Below are positions 11,334 to 60,536 of a stretch of DNA of 64,000 nt, in pieces. Source of the DNA: Mastigocoleus testarum BC008. GTDB taxonomy: Bacteria > Cyanobacteriota > Cyanobacteriia > Cyanobacteriales > Nostocaceae. The position numbers were made by a program, and so were the translations under genes. The stretch lies in assembly GCF_001456025.1 (NCBI RefSeq), contig NZ_LMTZ01000096.1, positions 1-64,000 on the forward strand, read 5' to 3'. Below the pieces are notes generated by a model. That model was given only the letters and a program-made list of their open reading frames with translations, did no database searches and was not told the DNA's origin. The stretch's first letter is position 1. Each line of letters opens with the position of its first letter.

Positions 11334-11408
11334 TAGAAGTTAGCTCACTGGCAGAGCAATAGACACTTAAGCTATTGGTGATAGGTTCGATTCCTATACT
11401 TTTAACCA
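11334..11408 (+). tRNA. tRNA-like element, probably a degenerate tRNA (anticodon CUU position, atypical anticodon loop)
   Basis: Manual fold gives an acceptor stem TAGAAGT/ACTTTTA with one G-U pair, a D-arm GCTC-ACTGGCA-GAGC, a T-arm ATAGG-TTCGATT-CCTAT and an encoded CCA. The anticodon stem has an A-G mismatch and A at position 33 instead of the universal U. Confidence 0.4.
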
Positions 11409-47537: not shown

Positions 47538-48737
47538 TTAAACAAACTTTTGACTGAACTCTTGGAGTAAATCTACTCTTCCTTTACGCAACATTGCTGG
47601 GTCTAATCTTTCAGTAGTGTTACAAGTCATCAAAACCACTAATCTTTGTCGCATTTGTATGCCAGAATGATCAATAACACTCTGGTATAGAGTTCCATCA
47701 AGTAAACTCAAAATATGCTCTGTTTTATTACTATATTGTGCTACTTCACTAGCGCGATCTTGAGCTAAATTATCTGCTTCGTTGATAATGAGACAAATTC
47801 TTTCTAAGTAAGATGGTGGAACAAAGTTGGAAATAGCATCATGATCCAAGATGAAGATAACATAACCCAAAGGTGCAAGGATTTCTTTCGCAACAGCTTG
47901 AGTCCAAGCTGTTTTCCCCGTCCCAGGTTTTCCGTGTACCAGAACAGCTAACTGGTTTTGATTAAGAATTGCTTGCTGTACTGAGTCAGTAAAAGTTTGG
48001 ATATTTGCTCCAAAAGTTTTGATGGGGAATTCACTATGAATTTTTCCCACACGACTTTGGTATCCACTCAGCATCACAGCTAAGTCGTAGGTTGCTTTAT
48101 TGATTAGTGGCTGTATATCTTTCGCCATTAAGGTATATTGTCTTCGACCTCTGTCATAGGGATCGATTTGGAGCCAAACATCATGTTGAGACCAATAAGC
48201 GTACACACTGTTGACAACATCCAAACGCTCCCAACCATTAAATTTTTCTACAGGAAAATAAAAGTCACGTTCTAAATAATATTGGGTAATAACATCCGGA
48301 CAACCTAGTAAATCTAAAACTCTGAATACAGCAATCTCCTGGAGACGGTTGAGGACATAGTCAATTGGAATACTATTACGGCTTACAAACTGAACTATGG
48401 GAGTCTCAGTGCTTAGAATATCTTTGTAACGATAGTCCGGCGATAAAGGTTCTGGTGTAATGTAATTCCAAAATTTTTCAACTTCATAACGCGTATCTTC
48501 AGAGAAAATATTTAATAAGTTTGCCCACCAAGCATAATTATTTCTACCTAAGTTTTCTCCAACACGACTTGCTAAATTCAAACTTTTTTGAGTTAACTCT
48601 TGCGTGTCTTGATGAAATAATTGCCACAAAAAATCCCAATCAAATTCACGATTAAATGGTCTCCAACCATTAGCAAGTAGGCTAGGTTGATTTTTGTTTC
48701 GATAGTCGTCACTTTTACCAAAATAATCAAATCCCAT
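47538..48737 (-). CDS. AAA-family ATPase with unassigned 230-aa N-terminal domain
   Basis: Walker A GKPGTGKT, Walker B LIINEAD, second region of homology/Arg finger MLRKGRVD. The N-terminal domain is Trp-rich and carries no known motif. Confidence 0.65.
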   Translation of the reverse strand: MGFDYFGKSDDYRNKNQPSLLANGWRPFNREFDWDFLWQLFHQDTQELTQKSLNLASRVGENLGRNNYAWWANLLNIFSEDTRYEVEKFWNYITPEPLSPDYRYKDILSTETPIVQFVSRNSIPIDYVLNRLQEIAVFRVLDLLGCPDVITQYYLERDFYFPVEKFNGWERLDVVNSVYAYWSQHDVWLQIDPYDRGRRQYTLMAKDIQPLINKATYDLAVMLSGYQSRVGKIHSEFPIKTFGANIQTFTDSVQQAILNQNQLAVLVHGKPGTGKTAWTQAVAKEILAPLGYVIFILDHDAISNFVPPSYLERICLIINEADNLAQDRASEVAQYSNKTEHILSLLDGTLYQSVIDHSGIQMRQRLVVLMTCNTTERLDPAMLRKGRVDLLQEFSQKFV

Positions 48738-52107: not shown

Positions 52108-52157
52108 GTAGAGACGTTGCATGTATTCTGTAGAGACGTTGCATGCAACGTCTCTAC
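52108..52157. repeat. palindromic dispersed element, one partial plus one full copy (GTAGAGACGTTGCATGCAACGTCTCTAC)
   Basis: gtagagacgttgcatg tattct gtagagacgttgcatgcaacgtctctac. The same 28-mer occurs in-frame inside the giant CDS at about 57586. Confidence 0.8.
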
Positions 52158-52473: not shown

Positions 52474-55400
52474 ATGACTGCATTTTCCTGCCACCGCCCC
52501 AAGGTTGCTCCCATTTGGGTTTTCTTGGTTACTTTTTTATTAATTATTTCTTTGTCCTTACCCTCGGTTAGCGCTCAAGAAGAAAAGCCAAAACCGCCGA
52601 AAGAATGGGAAATGAAAGGTATAGTAGCAGCGCTAAAAGACCCTTATGCAGTAGTAAGGCTGGAAGCTGCAAATAGATTAGGAACATATAAATTAGACCA
52701 TCCCAAAAACCAAATTCCCAACTATAAAGAAGTTGAGAATCTATTGCTTGAACAGTTATCACCTCCAGATAAGGAAGATAAAAAAGAAAAGAACTTTTCC
52801 CGTAGAGCTGCAGCAACAGCACTGGGGAATATAAAAGCGAAAGAATTTGCACCCCAAATTGCCCTACTCCTTAAAGATTCTGACTCGGATGTGCGTAATT
52901 CTGCAGCAACAGCACTGGGGAATATGAAAGCGAAAGAATTTGCACCCCAAATTGCCCTACTCCTTAAAGATTCTGACTCGGATGTGCGTAATTCCGCAGC
53001 AACAGCACTGGGGAATATGAAAGCGAAAGAAATTGCACCCCAAATTGCCCTACTCCTTAAAAGTTCTGAGTCTTCTGTGCGTAATTCCGCAGCAACAGCA
53101 CTGGGGAATATGAAAGCGAAAGAAATTGCACCCCAAATTGCCCTACTCCTTAAAGATTCTGACTCGGACGTGCGTAATTCCGCAGCAACAGCACTGGGGA
53201 ATATGAAAGCGAAAGAATTTGCACCCCAAATTGCCCTACTCCTTAAAGATTCTCAGTTTTATGTGCGTAATTCCGCAGCAACAGCACTGGGGGAGATGAA
53301 AGCGAAAGAATTTGCACCCCAAATTGCCCTACTTCTTAAAGATTCTAAGTCTTCTGTGCGTAATTCCGCAGCAACAGCACTGGGGGAGATGAAAGCGAAA
53401 GAAATTGCACCCCAAATTACCCTACTCCTTAAAGATTCTGAGTCTTCTGTGCGTTATTTCGCAGCAACAATACTGGGGAATATGAAAGCGAAAGAAATTG
53501 CACCCCAAATTGCCCTACTCCTTAAAAGTTCTGAGTCTTCTGTGCGTTATTCCGCAGCAAGAGCACTGGGGGAGATGAAAGCGAAAGAATTTGCACCCCA
53601 AATTGCCCTACTCCTTAAAGATTCTCAGTCTTCTGTGCGTTATTTCGCAGCAACAGCACTGGTGCAGATGAAAGCGAAAAAATTTGCACCCCAAATTGCC
53701 CTACTCCTTAAAGATTCTGAGTCTTCTGCGCGTAATTCTGCAGCAACAGCACTGGGGAATATGAAAGCGAAAGAATTTGCGCCCCAAATTGCCCTACTCC
53801 TTAAAGATTCTGAGTCTTCTGTGCGTAATTCCGCAGCAACAGCACTGGGGAATATGAAAGCGAAAGAATTTGCACCCCAAATTGCCCTACTCCTTAAAGA
53901 TTCTCAGTTTTATGTGCGTAATTCCGCAGCAACAGCACTGGTGCAGATGAAAGCGAAAGAATTTGCACCCCAAATTGCCCTACTTCTTAAAGATTCTAAG
54001 TCTTCTGTGCGTAATTCCGCAGCAACAGCACTGGGGGAGATGAAAGCGAAAGAAATTGCACCCCAAATTACCCTACTCCTTAAAGATTCTGACTCTTTTG
54101 TGCGTGATTTCGCAGCAAGAGCACTACCAAAGTTAGAAAAACAAGGTTTATCGGTCACTGTGCAAATTCTGAATGCAGTGCATTATTATCCTTCAGAAAT
54201 TAATCGATTGAGATTTTTAGCCCATTTTATCGGTGGTGGAGAGCAAGATGTAGAAACTCTAATGAAATGGATTGGTAAACCCAAAGTTAAAACTACACCA
54301 AATGATTTAACTGTTGCTCAAGGCAGGAAAATCATGAAATTATTTGAACGAAGTTGGAAACTGTGTGATTCCCTACCAGACTTACAACGGGAATTAGCAC
54401 GACAGATTGCTAGGGTTTCCAAAAAAGTTTCTTGGGAAGCATGGGACATCAATTTACTTCAACGTCACCATAAAAACCTTAAAGATGGCAGATCTCACTA
54501 TGCTGACACTGTGCATAGTGTTATTAATGATCTGGAATTTTGGAAATGGTTTTTTATTGCCAGAAATATTATCCTGATTCACCTTGCGATTTGGCTTACC
54601 CTGATTCTTCTTTACCCCAAATTTACTCCAGTTCTTGCACCTTTGTTATGGAATCCTTGGCTGAGACGAATTCTTGGTTTTGGTTATATTGGCTTACTGC
54701 TAACTTTGGTTCCCTGGTTCCGTGAAAGATTGTTACAACCATTTAAACCTTTGCTGTTAGCAGATGCACGATTAGATAATTTCGTTGAGCAAGGTTATTT
54801 TGGAGAATCTTATGTGAAGGTTCCACCGGGTAGTGTTCAAATTTTAAATTCAAGTCGGGATTTACGCAGGAATAAGAGATTTAGAGTTATTGGGAGCATG
54901 GGAAGTAATCACAGGGTCGAAATCTTAGGGGGATTGCTTTACTACGCTGGCGCTCCGTTCGCAATGACGAGTAGGTTTTTGAATCGCAAGGTCCATATGC
55001 TAAGGGGATTGCTTCACTACACTGGCGCTCCACTAGCCCGCAGCAAGCTGAACGCAATGACAGTAAATAACTATTCCCCAAAATATATTACGTCAAAAGT
55101 TCAACCAATTACTCAAGCAATCCCAAGTCTTCAAGGACAAATTGTCTTAGAAGGTGAATCTGGCTTGGGTAAATCAATGTTTCTGCGCCATTTAGCGAAT
55201 AATTCCCAGCGTATTCTTGTTTATCTCCCCGCTCAAAAGTGTGATAAAGGGGTAATCAAGGCAATTTCTGCCAAATTAAAAGAACAAGTAAATGATTTCA
55301 AGTTCCTAAAAAACCTGATTTACAATGGAGCCTTAGATATCTGCATCGACGGACTCAACGAAGTTACAGCAGACACTCGAGCAAAAATTTCCCAGTTTGC

Positions 55401-58113
55401 AGAAAGCTATTTCCGGGGCAATATAATTATGACAACCCAGCCCCTAGACTGGATACCGCCTTCCACTGCGAAGAAATACGAATTGCAGCCTTTAGAACGC
55501 GAACAGATTGAGCAATTTTTGCTGTTGCGTGGTGAGACGATTGGGGATTGGAGACTGGGGACTGGAGAAGACAAAGGAGTTAACGCATCATTTACACAAT
55601 ATGACCAAGCTTGTTCAAACTATCTTGCGGAAGCTTTCAACGAACAACAATCCCCAGAAGATTTAGCAGCAACCAAGCGAATTCTTTCTAACCCAATGGA
55701 TTTAACTTTGGTTGCCCTGATGCTATCACAAGGACAGCAACCAAATTTATTCCGCCTGCAAGAACAACAATATCAACTGATGGCGGCTGAATATCAGCGA
55801 GAATATCAGCGGGAATTTCCTTTAAAAAGGTTTTCTGAAGCTGTTTATCAAATGCGATTGTATGACGAAACCATTATACCCAGCAAGGAATTTGGTTCGG
55901 AATTAGTATGCTTGGGAAATGAAAAATATAAGATGGTTATCAGTCGTCAGTGGGAGAGTGACAAAGGGGAACCAGAGAAAACCTGGTATTTTCGCCACGA
56001 TAAAATTATGGAATTCTTCTTGGTACAAAACTTTCGCGGTGCAGATAAAGCAGTTCAAGAACGGATTCAAAAACACATTAGTGACCCTAGGTTTCGCGGC
56101 GTTTATTTATTATTAGCTAATTTACTTCCTTTAGATTATGCAGTTGAACTGCGAGAAAGAATTATCGATTATGCTGCTAACAGCAAAGACCATACATTAA
56201 GCGATAAGTTTGTTCAGTTATTACAGTTGCGCTTACCCCTAAAATGGACGCAAGGTGCAAAAGTAAAGTCATTATTACAACAACACGAACAAAAAACCCA
56301 GTATTTAGATTTAGTAGCAAAATTTTTAGAACAGGTCGATGCGACGGTCAAACGGGAGCAAAAACTATACCTGACCATTGAAAATATCGAAAGCAGTTTG
56401 AGGAATTATGCGCCTTTCCCGGTTGCGATCGCGATCGATACCCCAACAGATGAAGATATTAGTCATTTGGTAAAACTTTCCCAACAATTGAAAGCAGAAT
56501 CGACAGCAGAAACAGAAATAACAACAGAGCGATCGCCCAAAGCTGGCTTACTAATCTACAAAATTCCTCCAGATCCTGCAGCCAGAATGGAAATTGCTAA
56601 GGTGCGGTTGCGGGATAATTTTCTCTTAATTCCCATTCCCATCACATCAGTGGAAAAAGCCTTAAGCGATAAAGACAATTGTATTGGCTTGCTGGATGAG
56701 TATATTGATCGATATCTCCAACATGCTGACTTCTTTGATGATCGCAATGCCATTACTGACACATTATCATTTTTCGGTCGTACAGAAATCTTACAACGCT
56801 TAGGAGAAGAACTACTAAGACATCAAGCATTAGGGCTTTTTGGATTGCGTAAATCAGGTAAAACCTCAGTTTTGATCCAATTGGGTTTTATGTTGCGGGA
56901 ATATCCAATCATACATATTGATTTGCAAAGCTATGGCGGTTCTCGTTACGCTGTGGATTTATTTAACAAGATTATTGATGGTTTATCTAGCTTAGAAAGT
57001 GAAACTCCCTTTCCCCAATTTGCACCATTTCCTCGAGAGCAACCTGCTGCTGAGTTAACAACTGAATTTATTCAACGGGTGAATGAATATGTCAGTGTGA
57101 TCCAAAACCAAACAAAATATCACAACCAAAAGAAATATAAACTACCCATCCCGTGCTTTTTAGACGAAGTAGAAAGAATTATTCCCACACCAGAACATGA
57201 TCGCGAAAAAGCTGAAGAATTCAATGCTTTTTTTGGAGCGTTGCGAGTATTATGTCAAGAAAAGAAAATTTCATTACTGGTTGCTGACGTACATCCCGAT
57301 TGCAATCGGATTAATTCCTGGACGCAAGCAGGAGTTGCAACAAACCCAGTTTTTAGCTTCTTCAAAGAAATATTTTTACCACCTTTCTCAGAGGAAGAAA
57401 CCCAAGAGATGTTGGTAAATCTTGGTAAATTAATGGGTTTAGAGTTTGATGCAGCTACACCCCAACAAATCCATTACCAAAGTGGCGGACATCCCTTCGT
57501 TTCTCGTCAAATTGCCCGTTTTCTCACAAATAAAATTAAAGATCAATACAGTTCAGTTAAGAATTCTTTTGAAACAAATAACGCTGTAGAGACGTTGCAT
57601 GCAACGTCTCTACCAAGAAATTCAGGTTTATCTGAACCATATTTGATTAAAAATAAGCAGGACTTACCTCATCAAAACAATAACATGCTCATTGAGTGGG
57701 GAATGGTAGAAAAATATTTAAAGAAAACCTTAACCCAAAGAGGTCAGTTAAAAAATTATCTAGAAAAAAGTATTTGGGAAGATTTAGAGAAACGCAACTT
57801 TCAAGTTGCTATTGCTGTGCTGCAATGCATCGCCTGTAACGAAGATTCACATCGGAAAATAACACAAACAGCCTTATTTAACCAACTAAAAAGCCAATTT
57901 ACAACCAACCGGTTATTAAATGCTTGCAATTGGCTGATAAGTGTTGGATTGTTATATGAGGAGGAAGTTGAAGAACTAAAAGTGGAAGATTCAGAAATTC
58001 AAACCCAAGAAGCTCAAAGTAACGAACTTTACCATATCCGAATTCCTCTCTTATCAAGGTGGATCTACATGCAGATGACAGAAGAGGAAATTGAGCAATG
58101 TACGATTCCGTAG
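52474..58113 (+). CDS. giant multidomain protein: signal peptide, 14 HEAT(PBS-lyase-type) repeats, TM segments, NACHT-type STAND NTPase, second STAND-like P-loop ATPase module
   Basis: Signal-peptide-like MTAFSCHRPKVAPIWVFLVTFLLIISLSLPSVSA. 14 copies of a 31-aa repeat (AATALGNMKAKEFAPQIALLLKDSDSDVRNS). Hydrophobic helices at about aa 690-750. Walker A GESGLGKS and Walker B ICIDGLNEV (NACHT hhhDGhDE). NPMDLTLVALM and WYFRHDKIMEFFLVQ NACHT-like motifs. A second module runs FFGRTEILQRL...GLRKSGKTS...GGHPFVSRQIARFL. Confidence 0.8.
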   Translation: MTAFSCHRPKVAPIWVFLVTFLLIISLSLPSVSAQEEKPKPPKEWEMKGIVAALKDPYAVVRLEAANRLGTYKLDHPKNQIPNYKEVENLLLEQLSPPDKEDKKEKNFSRRAAATALGNIKAKEFAPQIALLLKDSDSDVRNSAATALGNMKAKEFAPQIALLLKDSDSDVRNSAATALGNMKAKEIAPQIALLLKSSESSVRNSAATALGNMKAKEIAPQIALLLKDSDSDVRNSAATALGNMKAKEFAPQIALLLKDSQFYVRNSAATALGEMKAKEFAPQIALLLKDSKSSVRNSAATALGEMKAKEIAPQITLLLKDSESSVRYFAATILGNMKAKEIAPQIALLLKSSESSVRYSAARALGEMKAKEFAPQIALLLKDSQSSVRYFAATALVQMKAKKFAPQIALLLKDSESSARNSAATALGNMKAKEFAPQIALLLKDSESSVRNSAATALGNMKAKEFAPQIALLLKDSQFYVRNSAATALVQMKAKEFAPQIALLLKDSKSSVRNSAATALGEMKAKEIAPQITLLLKDSDSFVRDFAARALPKLEKQGLSVTVQILNAVHYYPSEINRLRFLAHFIGGGEQDVETLMKWIGKPKVKTTPNDLTVAQGRKIMKLFERSWKLCDSLPDLQRELARQIARVSKKVSWEAWDINLLQRHHKNLKDGRSHYADTVHSVINDLEFWKWFFIARNIILIHLAIWLTLILLYPKFTPVLAPLLWNPWLRRILGFGYIGLLLTLVPWFRERLLQPFKPLLLADARLDNFVEQGYFGESYVKVPPGSVQILNSSRDLRRNKRFRVIGSMGSNHRVEILGGLLYYAGAPFAMTSRFLNRKVHMLRGLLHYTGAPLARSKLNAMTVNNYSPKYITSKVQPITQAIPSLQGQIVLEGESGLGKSMFLRHLANNSQRILVYLPAQKCDKGVIKAISAKLKEQVNDFKFLKNLIYNGALDICIDGLNEVTADTRAKISQFAESYFRGNIIMTTQPLDWIPPSTAKKYELQPLEREQIEQFLLLRGETIGDWRLGTGEDKGVNASFTQYDQACSNYLAEAFNEQQSPEDLAATKRILSNPMDLTLVALMLSQGQQPNLFRLQEQQYQLMAAEYQREYQREFPLKRFSEAVYQMRLYDETIIPSKEFGSELVCLGNEKYKMVISRQWESDKGEPEKTWYFRHDKIMEFFLVQNFRGADKAVQERIQKHISDPRFRGVYLLLANLLPLDYAVELRERIIDYAANSKDHTLSDKFVQLLQLRLPLKWTQGAKVKSLLQQHEQKTQYLDLVAKFLEQVDATVKREQKLYLTIENIESSLRNYAPFPVAIAIDTPTDEDISHLVKLSQQLKAESTAETEITTERSPKAGLLIYKIPPDPAARMEIAKVRLRDNFLLIPIPITSVEKALSDKDNCIGLLDEYIDRYLQHADFFDDRNAITDTLSFFGRTEILQRLGEELLRHQALGLFGLRKSGKTSVLIQLGFMLREYPIIHIDLQSYGGSRYAVDLFNKIIDGLSSLESETPFPQFAPFPREQPAAELTTEFIQRVNEYVSVIQNQTKYHNQKKYKLPIPCFLDEVERIIPTPEHDREKAEEFNAFFGALRVLCQEKKISLLVADVHPDCNRINSWTQAGVATNPVFSFFKEIFLPPFSEEETQEMLVNLGKLMGLEFDAATPQQIHYQSGGHPFVSRQIARFLTNKIKDQYSSVKNSFETNNAVETLHATSLPRNSGLSEPYLIKNKQDLPHQNNNMLIEWGMVEKYLKKTLTQRGQLKNYLEKSIWEDLEKRNFQVAIAVLQCIACNEDSHRKITQTALFNQLKSQFTTNRLLNACNWLISVGLLYEEEVEELKVEDSEIQTQEAQSNELYHIRIPLLSRWIYMQMTEEEIEQCTIP
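52810..54115 (+). repeat. 93-bp tandem repeat array (about 14 near-identical units) encoding the HEAT repeats
   Basis: Units differ at only a few nt. There is a higher-order duplication: units 5-7 resemble units 12-14, DSQFYVRNS...DSKSSVRNS...ITLLLK. Confidence 0.85.
54890..55075 (+). repeat. two tandem in-frame copies of a MITE-arm-like segment embedded in the giant CDS
   Basis: GGGATTGCTTtACTACgCTGGCGCTCCgttCGCAATGACg and GGGATTGCTTcACTACaCTGGCGCTCCa...CGCAATGACa, related to the right arm of the 52214-52381 element. Translated as GLLYYAGAPFAMTS / GLLHYTGAPLARSKLNAMT. Confidence 0.5.
57586..57613 (+). repeat. 28-nt perfect palindrome GTAGAGACGTTGCATGCAACGTCTCTAC inserted in-frame in the giant CDS (encodes VETLHATSL)
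   Basis: Exact copy of the intergenic palindrome at about 52130-52157. Confidence 0.8.
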
Positions 58114-60536
58114 GAGAACGTCCTTTTGACAATTACCGCACCCCCATAACAGAACCCTCCTACTTCTTTGGACGTAGTGAATTAATTCATACCATGCTCA
58201 AATTCCCCTTTCAGGTGCGGATACTCTTAGGTGGAAGACGTTTGGGTAAAACCAGCGCCTTACGTGCTGTCGAATGGAACTTGCTCGATCCTAATAATAA
58301 TCCCGATCGCAATCCCAATTCTAAATATTTTCGTCGTGCTTTCCCGGTATTAATCGATCTCAAGCTAGAACAACCTAAAGACTTAGATAATCTACGTTAT
58401 ATCCTGATCGCCAGACTCCGAGAAGCAATGGAACGCTGGCGAGAAATTCCTGTAACATACATTAACCAAATGTACCCCGAGTTTCTCAATCAAGTTAAGG
58501 GTGCTGAAGTTACTTTGAATTTCCTCTCAAGTTTAGGTATTAATTGTAACAGTAATAATTCCGATACCGAAAAACGGTTAAACAACGATAACTTTCGACT
58601 CGCTTTCTTAAAAACAAAAGAAGAACTACGAAAACAAAAAGAATTAAACTTTCAAGGCGTCTGCTTCCTGATTGATGGTGCTGAATTCATTGTCCGTCAA
58701 ACTTGGGCTACTGATGCTTGGTCTTATCTACGGGGTTTGAAAGATACCGACATCGCCATCAAATCAGCTTTAGGTTTGTTACTTTCCGGTTACCGAGACT
58801 TAAAAGAATATCAGCAACGCGTCGGTTCGCCATTATTGAATATAGCAGAAATTGAATGGTTAACCACATTAAGTGAAGAAGATACCAGAAAATTGGTATG
58901 TGACCGCATTTCGCACATGTTGCAGACTTATGACACCGAAAAAGAAAAAATTTTTTTGAGTGAAGACGCGATCGCACAAATTATCGAATGGTCTGGATGT
59001 CATCCCTACTTGATCCAACAATTGCTCAACATGATTTTTGACTCCAACCAGCAATTTGAGCTTGAGCAGCAATGCTTAGATACTCATCTCATCAACAAAT
59101 TATTACAGCATCACGATAAAGATTTCTCTTCCTGGTGGAACACCGAACACCTCTCTGGTTGCTTTAGTGAAGACGAACGCAAAATTTACTGTACCTTAAT
59201 CGAACAACGCCAAGCGACCCCCAAGGATTTAGCAAAAAATACAAGTTTCAGCCGATTTAAAGTATCAGAAGCATTAGAAGTAATGGCTGGTACCGGTGTA
59301 ATTCACCTACTAGATGATGAATCTTACATATTAGGTTCTCGTCTATTTCAAGAATGGGTAAAAGATTTAACTTCTAATACTTTAAGTCCTAATACATCTG
59401 AGTCAGACTCTGAAAAGCAATCGCAACAAGTTTTATTAGATAAACAATTATGTAAACAAAATCAAATTCAAAATCAAACTCAAATTAATTACCAGGATTT
59501 TCAAATCATAGTTGATAAAAATCATTATATTCGTGCTTCCTCAGAACAAGGGGAAGTTAAAAACCAATTATTATTAGATATCAATAAAATAAAACTGACA
59601 TTAAAACTAGTCGAACTCAATCAGACAGATACAGAACTGCTCAAAGCACTAGGTCACGAGCTTTACCAAGCACTCTTTCCCGATAAAATTAACGCTCGAT
59701 TCCACGCTACATTAGCAAGCGCACAAACAAAAAAAGAAAGCGTCCGCTTACGTCTAATATTTGAATCGCCCGAATTAGCTTCTCTACCTTGGGAATTCCT
59801 CTACGACGAAGATACCAACACTTTTTTAGGAAACAACACCGAAACCGTTCTTTCTCGTTATATCGATCTTCCCTTAAGAAAAAGCGATCTAAAAGCCGTT
59901 AGTTTACCTCTGAAAGTCCTATTAGTCATTTCCACCCCCACTGACTTAGCCACATTAGACGTTGCTGGAGAAGAAAAACTAATTCAAGAAGCCTTAAAAA
60001 CACACATAGAAACAAAAAACATTGAGTTAGATATCTTACAAACAGCAACGAGACGAGAAATCCAGCAAAAGCTAAATGAGAAGCATTACGATGTGTTTCA
60101 CTTTATCGGTCATGGTGAATTTGAGAATAACAAAGGTTACATCATTCTTGTAGATGAAGCAAGAAAAGCGAAATATATGGATGATGAAAACTTCGCTAAC
60201 TTCTTTTTAGGTAGTCATAATGTGGGATTAGTTATTCTAAATTCCTGTCAAGGAGCAAAAGTAGCTTCAAATCAAGCGATGAGGGGTACAGCACCAAACC
60301 TAGTGCGTCGGGGAATACCCGCAGTAATAGCAATGCAGTATTCTATTTTCGACAACACAGCAAAACTTTTTGCAGACGAATTTTATCGTACTTTAGCACT
60401 AGGTTATCCCATAGATGCAGCAATCCAGAAAACTCGGAATGCAATTTCTATGGAATGTGGACTCAATACACGGGACTTTGCAACACCAGTGCTGTACATG
60501 CGAGCCAAAGACGGAATTATTTTAAGTGGATTATGA
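58098..60536 (+). CDS. STAND-like P-loop ATPase fused to a CHAT (caspase-like) protease domain
   Basis: FFGRSELIHTML...GGRRLGKTS (Walker A), FLIDGAEF (Walker B), GCHPYLIQQL (GxP). The C-terminal CHAT carries a His/Cys dyad in FHFIGHGEF and LVILNSCQGAK. Its ATG overlaps the upstream gene by 16 nt, and GAGGAAA lies 7 nt upstream. Confidence 0.8.
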   Translation: MYDSVGERPFDNYRTPITEPSYFFGRSELIHTMLKFPFQVRILLGGRRLGKTSALRAVEWNLLDPNNNPDRNPNSKYFRRAFPVLIDLKLEQPKDLDNLRYILIARLREAMERWREIPVTYINQMYPEFLNQVKGAEVTLNFLSSLGINCNSNNSDTEKRLNNDNFRLAFLKTKEELRKQKELNFQGVCFLIDGAEFIVRQTWATDAWSYLRGLKDTDIAIKSALGLLLSGYRDLKEYQQRVGSPLLNIAEIEWLTTLSEEDTRKLVCDRISHMLQTYDTEKEKIFLSEDAIAQIIEWSGCHPYLIQQLLNMIFDSNQQFELEQQCLDTHLINKLLQHHDKDFSSWWNTEHLSGCFSEDERKIYCTLIEQRQATPKDLAKNTSFSRFKVSEALEVMAGTGVIHLLDDESYILGSRLFQEWVKDLTSNTLSPNTSESDSEKQSQQVLLDKQLCKQNQIQNQTQINYQDFQIIVDKNHYIRASSEQGEVKNQLLLDINKIKLTLKLVELNQTDTELLKALGHELYQALFPDKINARFHATLASAQTKKESVRLRLIFESPELASLPWEFLYDEDTNTFLGNNTETVLSRYIDLPLRKSDLKAVSLPLKVLLVISTPTDLATLDVAGEEKLIQEALKTHIETKNIELDILQTATRREIQQKLNEKHYDVFHFIGHGEFENNKGYIILVDEARKAKYMDDENFANFFLGSHNVGLVILNSCQGAKVASNQAMRGTAPNLVRRGIPAVIAMQYSIFDNTAKLFADEFYRTLALGYPIDAAIQKTRNAISMECGLNTRDFATPVLYMRAKDGIILSGL

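Follow-up and report, generated by a model that had tools for sequence, protein, structure and literature searches.

A predicted CHAT protease on an ORC/STAND-type NTPase module, encoded by the second gene of a conserved pair in Mastigocoleus testarum BC008 and related cyanobacteria

We analysed a stretch of 64,000 nucleotides (nt) of the cyanobacterium Mastigocoleus testarum BC008 (contig NZ_LMTZ01000096.1, positions 1 to 64,000), hereafter called the window, and concentrated on a gene near its end, gene 2, that encodes a nucleoside triphosphatase (NTPase) module followed by a predicted CHAT protease. Gene 2 overlaps the end of gene 1, whose product terminates in a related NTPase module. We refer to the module of gene 1 as A, to the one of gene 2 as B, and to the whole gene 2 product as B-CHAT. 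A preliminary description of this DNA had called gene 2 a stand-alone effector, a term that we consider misleading, since gene 2 belongs to a two-gene pair. Gene 2 is probably the executor half of a two-protein switch of the STAND type, resembling the nucleotide-binding leucine-rich repeat receptors (NLRs), in which clustered CHAT domains would cause proteolysis and thereby arrest or death of the cell.

The pairing of the two genes was found far beyond the window. Homology searches of the same database gave families of similar size, with at least 224 B-type and at least 219 A-type proteins, and an exhaustive profile search of 1.84 billion representatives returned 75 B proteins at E <= 1e-30 and 618 members for the wider superfamily at E <= 1e-10. 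Our survey covered 62 B-type modules from genomic and metagenomic loci, and for 57 of them an open reading frame (ORF) with an A module was located directly upstream on the same strand. The five modules without a detected A were those at contig ends, the B-like part of a fusion protein (P0021), one locus in which no A was found (L058) and one in which A has been damaged (L001). Pairwise distances of A and B were strongly correlated (Mantel r 0.956, 51 loci), and none of 2000 permutations gave a value as high; the two modules are thus passed on together, by inheritance or by transfer.

At 49 of the 57 junctions the two genes overlap, by 16 nt in 24, 88 nt in eight, 19 nt in six, 31 nt in four and 46 nt in three, and overlaps of 1, 4, 10 and 55 nt likewise occur. 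In the window both the 16-nt overlap of the gene 2 ATG with the gene 1 stop codon and the sequence GAGGAAA, 7 nt upstream of the ATG (spacer 58091-58097), were present as the preliminary description had reported, and its proposal of translational coupling gained from the comparison with the rest of the family, in which overlap and Shine-Dalgarno (SD) sequence are conserved. Of 47 non-identical overlapping junctions, 41 had GAGGA, GGAGG or AGGAG at a distance of up to 25 nt from the ATG; the junctions are phylogenetically related, so that no formal probability is attached to this count. The SD sequence is encoded in the E-E-E-I tail of A with GAG at the critical codon, whereas GAG makes up 29% of the Glu codons in the same genes. 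Because of this synonymous bias, the comparison argues that the SD sequence at the junction is selected and that translational coupling is functional. Near-stoichiometric production of the two proteins, which had also been proposed, would be a plausible outcome of such coupling. At four Coleofasciculus loci (L048, L049, L050 and L052) the genes are separated by a spacer instead of overlapping, and the region some 20-120 nt ahead of B consists of repeated heptamers, (TGACAAA or TCAATTA)n, without an SD-like sequence.

The gene 2 start is real, since its homologues begin at the same Met, with the consensus M-x-D-x-x-x-E-RPFDN[FY]R. For the estimation of the ratio of nonsynonymous to synonymous substitution rates (dN/dS) we used as reference the closest relative, a contig of Mastigocoleus sp. 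MO_188.B34 (L008), to which the flanks on both sides of the locus are 93-95% identical in DNA. For gene 2 as a whole the ratio was 0.14; taken separately, the NTPase part had 0.13 and the CHAT part 0.14; in comparison with two more distant orthologs it was 0.12-0.17, and for the two domains it ranged over the three orthologs from 0.11 to 0.19. Based on these ratios gene 2 is under purifying selection and is a functional gene, neither a chance ORF nor a relic. The linker between the domains is under relaxed selection (0.45-0.72, with 0.72 against L008) and differs in length from that of L008. The Q/N-rich stretch mentioned in the preliminary description was located here (Table 1).

A and B were found to be related over their whole length. 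By BLASTP they matched over 48 aa only (E 3e-4). When the profiles were compared with hhalign, B matched A with 97.5% probability (E 6.6e-12, 345 columns), and the alignment ran from FFGR through Walker A and B, the GxP motif and the winged helix to a final amphipathic helix. The preliminary description had based the likeness on three motifs, and the homology thus extends over the entire NTPase and winged helix. Its view that the FFGR motif is unusual did not hold, as this motif is ordinary and is covered by the profiles of nSTAND1, ATPase_2 and AAA_16 in their N-terminal parts. The NTPase in the middle of gene 1 served as control and gave 4% against B and 0.2% against A, by which it was rejected as a third paralog. 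On the strength of this difference A and B are specific paralogs. The two modules also occur in one chain: P0021 (L006) is a natural B'-A protein, whose gene is overlapped by that of a separate B by the usual 16 nt, and double-ATPase proteins are present in the wider family. Two short metagenome contigs encode proteins (P0023, 540 aa; P0024, 598 aa) in which the N-terminal two-thirds of A are joined to the middle or C-terminal part of B at non-equivalent positions; these may be deletion variants or assembly chimeras.

No significant ATPase match was obtained for gene 2 aa 1-425 in Pfam, NCBIfam or PADLOC, the sole match to this part being a sub-threshold one to the TrmB winged helix at aa 356-404, and nSTAND1 did not match the domain either. 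We relied on an AlphaFold2 model of aa 1-432 built on an alignment of 106 sequences (predicted local distance difference test (pLDDT) 87.5; predicted template modelling score (pTM) 0.88), and set aside a single-sequence run of the full length (pLDDT 34). The model has a five-stranded P-loop core (strands 40-44, 81-87, 187-193, 225-231 and 251-254), a helical lid with the invariant G300-x-H302-P303 and then a winged helix, which is TrmB/ArsR-like according to both Pfam and structural comparison. Walker A, Walker B (D193/E196), R233 and the GxP motif show little or no variation across the 106 B sequences, and R233 would by its position correspond to the sensor-1 arginine of STAND proteins. Structural matches among the nucleotide-binding oligomerisation domains (NODs) of NLRs were WRR4A (16.4), the wheat NB-ARC resistosome (16.1), CED-4 (14.9), ZAR1 (13.0) and NLRP3 (11.7), with MalT at 12.2. 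Gene 2 thus has the P-loop with Walker A and B, and the order of nucleotide-binding domain (NBD), GxP helical domain and winged helix, by which STAND proteins are recognised (Leipe et al. 2004). Sensor repeats were not detected in the gene 2 polypeptide with Pfam, and HEAT repeats are found on gene 1. B appears to be an active NTP switch of the ORC/STAND type. The label STAND-like is fair, and its place may be inside STAND proper or beside STAND together with ATPase_2.

The C-terminal part of gene 2 was matched by Pfam CHAT (PF12770, E 9.1e-32, 111.1 bits with a cut-off of 24), and together with the model of the N-domain this bears out the ATPase-plus-CHAT architecture of the preliminary description. 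By all sequence criteria gene 2 belongs to the CHAT family, which is placed among the caspase-like peptidases of clan CD. The catalytic dyad had been placed in the motifs FHFIGHG (aa 667-673) and LNSCQGA (aa 714-720); both contain the predicted catalytic positions, and the catalytic His could be refined to the second His of the first motif, H672. In an eight-sequence CHAT alignment that included other architectures (21-29% identity), H668, G671, H672 and C717 were among the invariant columns. With phmmer, HFIGHG and LNSC of gene 2 aligned to HFIGHG and LNAC of SAVED-CHAT (PDB 8tl0_A), the aligned residues having the chain indices H355 and C402, 47 apart like H375 and C422. In SAVED-CHAT the dyad H375/C422 is proven by mutation and lies about 4 Å apart in the active filament, and the protease is activated by oligomerisation in filaments driven by cyclic triadenylate (cA3) (10.1101/2023.06.23.546230). 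Because of the alignment to this dyad with the identical 47-residue spacing, H672 and C717 are the predicted dyad of the gene 2 CHAT domain.

Two closer assignments of the CHAT part were rejected. The best NCBIfam match was HetF (NF045509, E 5.7e-39), with 134.1 bits far below the equivalog cut-off of 1200 and a partial alignment. The PADLOC model SAVED_CHAT matched with E 3.4e-17, confined to aa 511-782, and there was no Pfam match to SAVED in gene 2. In another cyanobacterium a cassette sharing 79% identity with the CHAT cassette of gene 2 was found N-terminal to an AAA_35 ATPase (P0010; L087 6001-11352), and this gene is followed by an AAA_35-GUN4 gene, a second type of ATPase pair that uses the same protease cassette. 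Both cassettes start at the same N-Y-Q-D-F-Q boundary. Judged from the shared boundary and the high identity on a different ATPase, the cassette moves between ATPase scaffolds.

Gene 1 is, based on a hydropathy scan and domain matches, a predicted membrane-anchored NLR-like protein, with a HEAT array that may be exposed to the cytoplasm or to the periplasm/lumen. The HEAT repeats are near-identical to each other and differ at few positions per repeat. In comparison with L008, aa ~45-700 and 800-890 are just 8-50% identical and the type and number of HEAT repeats differ, whereas aa 900-1800, with the NACHT-like and A modules, are 91-98% identical. The HEAT region is a putative sensor that is hypervariable and cassette-like. 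The middle NTPase passed the Pfam threshold for AAA_22 (30.5 bits, cut-off 27). The NACHT label given to gene 1 by the preliminary description was not upheld by Pfam, as the match reached 18.7 bits with a cut-off of 26.7 and covered the P-loop only (aa 890-910); its Walker B motif DICIDGLNE does resemble the NACHT signature DGxDE.

The A module of the window scored 24.3 bits with Pfam nSTAND1 (PF20703, cut-off 27.1) over ~240 residues; its relatives scored 25.0-27.4 bits, and many A orthologs carry a precomputed PF20703 match. It is 42-50% identical to the C-terminal ~550 residues found behind TIR (L002), HEAT (L004) and B-like (P0021, L006) N-termini, and the NTP-binding motifs were invariant in the alignment of A modules. 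A subdomain of ~145 residues ahead of FFGR (56281-56715, gene 1 aa 1270-1414) was present in all A modules and absent from B; it is conserved at, for example, PFPV..ID.P.D and VRLRD.F.LIP, and had no Pfam match. We also observed an exact 28-nt palindrome, GTAGAGACGTTGCATGCAACGTCTCTAC, twice in the window, where none is expected by chance. One copy (52130-52157) forms a terminator-like hairpin after a rodZ-like gene; the other (57586-57613) lies in frame in the A module and encodes VETLHATSL in a ~45-aa insertion that other A modules lack. This suggests a small dispersed palindromic repeat whose presence within a coding region is tolerated.

Table 1. Features of gene 1, gene 2 and their junction (window coordinates; aa, amino acids)
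Feature	Position	Strand	Remarks
Gene 2 (B-CHAT)	58098..60536	+	812 aa, ATG start; from ORF, Pfam and dN/dS
Gene 2 layout			NTPase-winged helix aa 1-425; linker aa 426-462; CHAT protease module aa 463-812
Gene 1/gene 2 overlap	58098..58113	+	16 nt; gene 2 in -1 frame relative to gene 1
SD-like GAGGAAA	58084..58090	+	inside gene 1 codons for the conserved E-E-E-I tail
B module	58098..59372	+	aa 1-425; AAA+/STAND-type NBD, helical lid, winged helix
FFGRSEL before P-loop	58164..58184	+	aa 23-29; F23, G25 invariant in 106 sequences
B Walker A GGRRLGKTS	58230..58256	+	aa 45-53; G46, R48, G50, K51, S53 invariant in 106 sequences
B Walker B CFLIDGAEF	58662..58688	+	aa 189-197; D193, E196; end of predicted strand 187-193
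LLSGYRD	58779..58799	+	aa 228-234; predicted strand 225-231, then conserved R233
B GxP-type SGCHPYL	58992..59012	+	aa 299-305; between lid helices 289-299 and 303-316; G300, H302, P303 invariant
B winged helix	59163..59309	+	aa 356-404
S/Q/N-rich low-complexity linker	59373..59483	+	aa 426-462
Q/N stretch QNQIQNQTQINYQDFQ	59457-59504	+	aa 454-469
CHAT cassette	59484..60533	+	aa 463-812; Pfam CHAT aa 517-787 = 59646-60458
H672 codon (GHG)	60111..60113	+	predicted catalytic His; invariant in CHAT alignment; aligns to SAVED-CHAT H375
C717 codon (LNSC)	60246..60248	+	predicted catalytic Cys; invariant in CHAT alignment; aligns to SAVED-CHAT C422
Gene 1	52474..58113	+	1879 aa; N-terminal hydrophobic anchor, HEAT repeats, hydrophobic segments, NACHT-like P-loop module, A module
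Hydrophobic N-terminal segment	52504-52560	+	aa 11-29; signal-anchor-like helix, then VSA-Q
HEAT array	52810..54125	+	14.2 x 93 nt = 14 x 31-aa repeats, aa ~113-551; 92% matches
Hydrophobic segments	54535..54723	+	aa 688-750; two or three, membrane-spanning-like (hydropathy scan)
Middle NTPase module	55057..56280	+	aa 862-1269
Middle NTPase Walker A	55153-55179	+	
Middle NTPase DICIDGLNE	55336-55362	+	
A module	56281..58110	+	aa 1270-1879; nSTAND1-like NTPase and winged helix, paralog of B
A FFGRTEI		+	aa 1433-1439
A Walker A GLRKSGKTS	56842-56868	+	aa 1457-1465
A Walker B CFLDEVERI	57154-57180	+	aa 1561-1569
A GxP SGGHPFV	57481-57501	+	aa 1670-1676

The ends of both proteins that face away from the paired modules were variable. 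Among the N-termini of A, HEAT repeats were the commonest; others were a second ATPase (AAA_22, ATPase_2, KAP or NACHT-like), TIR, CHAT, proteins annotated as caspase family, the effector-associated domain (EAD) EAD1 (PF19955), pentapeptide repeats, WD40, guanylate cyclase, Band 7 and a receiver domain. The combination of HEAT repeats, hydrophobic segments, a NACHT-like module and A recurs at many Nostocales loci, in Nostoc, Tolypothrix, Scytonema, Calothrix, Rhizonema, Brasilonema and Mojavia. B is mostly a bare protein of ~400 aa, annotated as ATP-binding protein, TrmB family regulator or hypothetical. B-CHAT was found in the window, in the second Mastigocoleus (L008), in L001, in Richelia (L011), in Rivularia (L010, frameshifted) and in Calothrix rhizosoleniae (L009, cut by the contig end). 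Other C-termini of B were TIR (P0020), a PNP_UDP_1 nucleosidase (L002) and a calcineurin-like phosphoesterase (Metallophos, L067), and wider relatives carried Peptidase_C14 with EAD9, TIR or an alpha/beta-hydrolase. In a tree of B modules the CHAT-bearing proteins form one clade nested among bare B proteins of Nostocales, and because of this nesting the CHAT fusion is a single derived event, a lineage-specific addition.

The A/B family is concentrated in filamentous cyanobacteria, with outliers in Xenococcus, Crocosphaera, Candidatus Entotheonella (two loci), a Pyrinomonadaceae acidobacterium and Variovorax rhizosphaerae. Certain genomes harbour two pairs that differ strongly (Rhizonema PD37, L027 and L033; Entotheonella, L047 and L062), two copies are located on Nostoc plasmids, the L004 pair lies beside an integrase and the L006 pair among phage- or plasmid-like genes. 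Swapped effector and adaptor domains, a patchy distribution, plasmid copies and hypervariable HEAT repeats are a signature of conflict systems and support such a role for the pair.

The preliminary description had proposed a homotypic coupling of the A and B ATPases, and this is strongly favoured, on indirect grounds, by the conserved gene order, the correlated distances, the P0021 fusion and double-ATPase proteins, and a published precedent of a two-gene STAND operon. A physical A-B complex, the direction of signalling, activation of the protease by oligomerisation and a role in immunity or cell death are what we infer from this. In the proposed mechanism gene 1 and gene 2 would be co-transcribed, and ribosomes would terminate or re-initiate at the 16-nt overlap, aided by the SD sequence in the last codons of gene 1. 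The membrane-anchored gene 1 product, with its HEAT array, NACHT-like NTPase and A module, would perceive a cue, most likely derived from an invader or other non-self. NTP-dependent opening of A, or nucleotide exchange on it, would then nucleate a hetero-oligomer with B. CHAT domains clustered on B could be activated by induced proximity and might cleave cellular targets, leading to growth arrest or cell death. Induced proximity has parallels in the apoptosome with caspase-9, in NAIP-NLRC4 and in the SAVED-CHAT filaments, and the switch as a whole is modelled on STAND and AAA+ switches such as the apoptosome, NAIP-NLRC4 and resistosomes. A more far-reaching version, which we consider rather doubtful, would make the pair a prokaryotic counterpart of sensor/helper NLR pairs, an unnamed paired-NLR family with both NTPases active, in which the signal runs through the NACHT-like module to A and on to B, heterotypic NOD-NOD templating switches on the fused protease, and a strain-specific, fast-diversifying HEAT cassette on a membrane-anchored receptor serves for phage sensing or for allorecognition between filaments.

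Several observations weigh against gene 2 as the executor of such a switch. Most B proteins are without an effector and most A proteins carry HEAT repeats only, so that the output of the family as a whole need not be proteolysis or death. Structurally B is nearer to archaeal ATPase_2 proteins and ORC/Cdc6 than to canonical NLR NODs. The overlap of the genes is not universal, as 8 of the 57 junctions have spacers of 39-447 nt (in Coleofasciculus, Okeania and Symploca), and L001 has lost the NTPase core of A in frame while its B-CHAT is intact. The window pair is flanked on one side by rluB-like and rodZ-like genes and on the other by malQ, NUDIX and RidA genes, and not by a recognisable defence island; the base composition of the locus was unremarkable and no candidate gene for a protease substrate adjoins gene 2. 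None of the defence models in PADLOC-DB v2 matched the NTPase parts, and only SAVED_CHAT (to the CHAT part) and HEAT-repeat models gave matches.

The behaviour of L001 is relevant to the possibility that gene 2 acts alone, homo-oligomerising as an autonomous STAND-CHAT protein, with gene 1 as a duplicated neighbour that at most regulates its expression and with no A-B hetero-oligomer. In L001 (7308-10016 of ERZ25039505:contig_17257), where B-CHAT is 71% identical to gene 2, the upstream gene corresponds to gene 1 aa 543-1401 plus the last 34 residues, the NTPase and winged-helix core of A is deleted and the HEAT part is a separate gene. Either this is a decaying copy or B-CHAT can work without the NTPase of A. 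Besides L001, autonomous action would agree with the complete NTPase of B, which has all motifs, and with single-chain relatives in the wider family that combine an NTPase with a C-terminal caspase, TIR or Metallophos domain. Against it stand the A-then-B order, the conserved overlap and the co-varying distances, and also the B'-A fusion and double-ATPase proteins; Pfam detected no sensor domain within gene 2 itself, and even L001 has kept the N-terminal subdomain of A, its last 34 residues and the 16-nt overlap. We consider autonomous action unlikely. Only a small chance is also given to a non-immune function, in which the pair would be a membrane-associated, NTP-dependent regulator in filamentous cyanobacteria, for instance of the envelope, of division or of differentiation, the winged helix might bind DNA as in STAND regulators of the MalT type, and CHAT would in this clade be a processing protease like HetF. 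The TrmB/ArsR-like winged helix of B, the scarcity of toxic effectors, the housekeeping neighbours, including the rodZ-like gene directly upstream of gene 1, HetF as the top NCBIfam match of the CHAT part and the lack of PADLOC matches to the NTPases would all fit a regulator. However, the neighbours are not conserved, the HetF score is 134 against a cut-off of 1200, and the family is patchy and non-core, with multiple divergent copies per genome and copies on plasmids. Domains of the kind fused here, namely TIR, caspase, PNP nucleosidase, Metallophos and EAD1, typically occur in conflict systems, and the HEAT cassette is hypervariable between near-identical strains.

Two further explanations were judged to be much less probable. 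The overlap might serve programmed ribosomal frameshifting that yields a single gene 1-gene 2 polypeptide, and indeed its length is conserved as 3n+1, with B always in the -1 frame in the 16-, 19- and 31-nt classes, and fused double-ATPase proteins exist in nature. This is very unlikely, as no slippery X_XXY_YYZ heptamer was found in 58080-58113, the conserved ATG and the selected SD sequence are what independent initiation requires, the N-terminus of B is conserved from its Met, and overlaps of 1, 4, 10, 46, 55 and 88 nt occur as well as spacers. That gene 2 is an inactive relic of domain shuffling is hardly credible in view of the intact ORF of 812 aa, the low dN/dS on both domains in three orthologs and the preservation of all catalytic and NTP-binding residues, even though the Rivularia ortholog is frameshifted in CHAT and L001 has lost the core of A.

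Outside the pair itself the loci had little in common. No conserved flanking genes were found at A/B loci, and a third conserved gene downstream of B, for a substrate or an effector, was rejected, the neighbours being unrelated housekeeping genes (2-hydroxyacid dehydrogenase, UMP kinase/RRF, PurF-like). A DUF6671 gene follows B-CHAT in L001 (12502-13360) and L010 (10497-11363); in the window DUF6671 had no significant match (best tblastn E 4.9). Recent horizontal arrival of the locus was likewise rejected, with no compositional signal, and no homologues were found in phages. CRISPR or cGAS/DncV-like nucleotidyltransferase (CD-NTase) genes were not found near gene 2 in the window. About 3.7 kb upstream of gene 1 a 399-aa protein (47538-48737, minus strand) has a classical AAA domain at its C-terminus (Pfam AAA, E 3.4e-12) behind 250 uncharacterised N-terminal residues. 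A tRNA gene (11334-11405, plus strand) was the sole Rfam match in the window at the gathering threshold.

To our knowledge, work on NLR-like immunity in bacteria (Avs, bNACHT) has up to now dealt with single-chain proteins, and we know of paired or helper NLRs with experimental support from plants and animals only. The A/B pair offers a compact and genetically tractable two-gene case, with paralogous and apparently active NTPases that are co-inherited and translationally coupled and that carry an exchangeable output domain. It could provide a handle on heterotypic NOD-NOD nucleation, on the switching of a caspase-like protease by an NTPase scaffold and on the diversification of sensor cassettes. 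In addition, the ~400-aa B NTPase is a family for which Pfam, NCBIfam and PADLOC have no model. A description of the A/B pair was not found in the searched literature; subscription journals were largely outside this search and the absence is not proof.

In comparison with known systems, the pair shares with Avs and bNACHT the logic of sensor, NTPase and effector in a bacterial NLR-like protein. Those are single polypeptides with an N-terminal effector and a C-terminal sensor, whereas here the sensor side and the effector side belong to two different, paralogous NTPases, the effector being C-terminal; neither gene 1 nor gene 2 had a PADLOC match to Avs or bNACHT. In NAIP-NLRC4 and in plant pairs a sensor NLR nucleates a paralogous executor through NOD-NOD contacts, which leads to caspase activation or cell death. 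With these the likeness is an analogy only, not membership at the sequence level, and unlike in NAIP-NLRC4 the caspase-like protease of gene 2 is part of the executor chain itself, and the two partners are encoded by overlapping genes of a bacterial operon. SAVED-CHAT and TPR-CHAT/Csx29 (Craspase) also use a CHAT protease as effector; the partner module of gene 2 is an NTPase in place of SAVED or TPR, and no substrate gene is adjacent. HetF, which acts in heterocyst differentiation and cell division, is likewise a cyanobacterial CHAT protease, but just the CHAT region aligns (positions 70-378 of 836) and HetF has no NTPase module. The archaeal ATPase_2 proteins PABY2304 (2qen) and SSO1545 (2fna) are 13-17% identical to B; they have neither an effector fusion nor a known function, and gene 2 has no significant Pfam match to ATPase_2.

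The nearest relatives were found among the STAND families of conflict systems. nSTAND1 (PF20703, defined in PMC8195603) resembles A in its N-terminal EADs, TIR and caspase domains, and nSTAND1-positive proteins were reached by the B profile at E 1e-24 to 1e-32; an obligate downstream paralog like B was not found described for nSTAND1 in the searched papers. The closest published arrangement is the nSTAND2 two-gene operon, which is mobile, encodes two paralogous STAND modules and is predicted to form a toroidal hetero-multimer (Kaur, Iyer, Burroughs and Aravind, 2021, eLife e70394, Fig. 6C; PMC8195603). Like A/B, it consists of adjacent genes with paralogous STAND modules, one partner having variable effectors. 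The nSTAND2 family itself (PF20702) matched neither module of the window at E <= 1, and the relative P0021 reached 16 bits (cut-off 24) over 70 residues. One nSTAND2 partner is eroded, whereas Walker A and B are intact in both A and B; the nSTAND2 effectors are GT4 and HEPN, those of B are CHAT, TIR, PNP and Metallophos; and, unlike in the nSTAND2 operon, partner A carries large variable N-termini (HEAT, TIR, caspase, EAD1). Conflict systems built around an NTPase and equipped with swappable effectors are thus known, two-gene STAND pairs among them, and the A/B pair is not categorically new but a further form of this theme, in which both NTPases have kept their motifs and the executor may carry its protease on the same chain.

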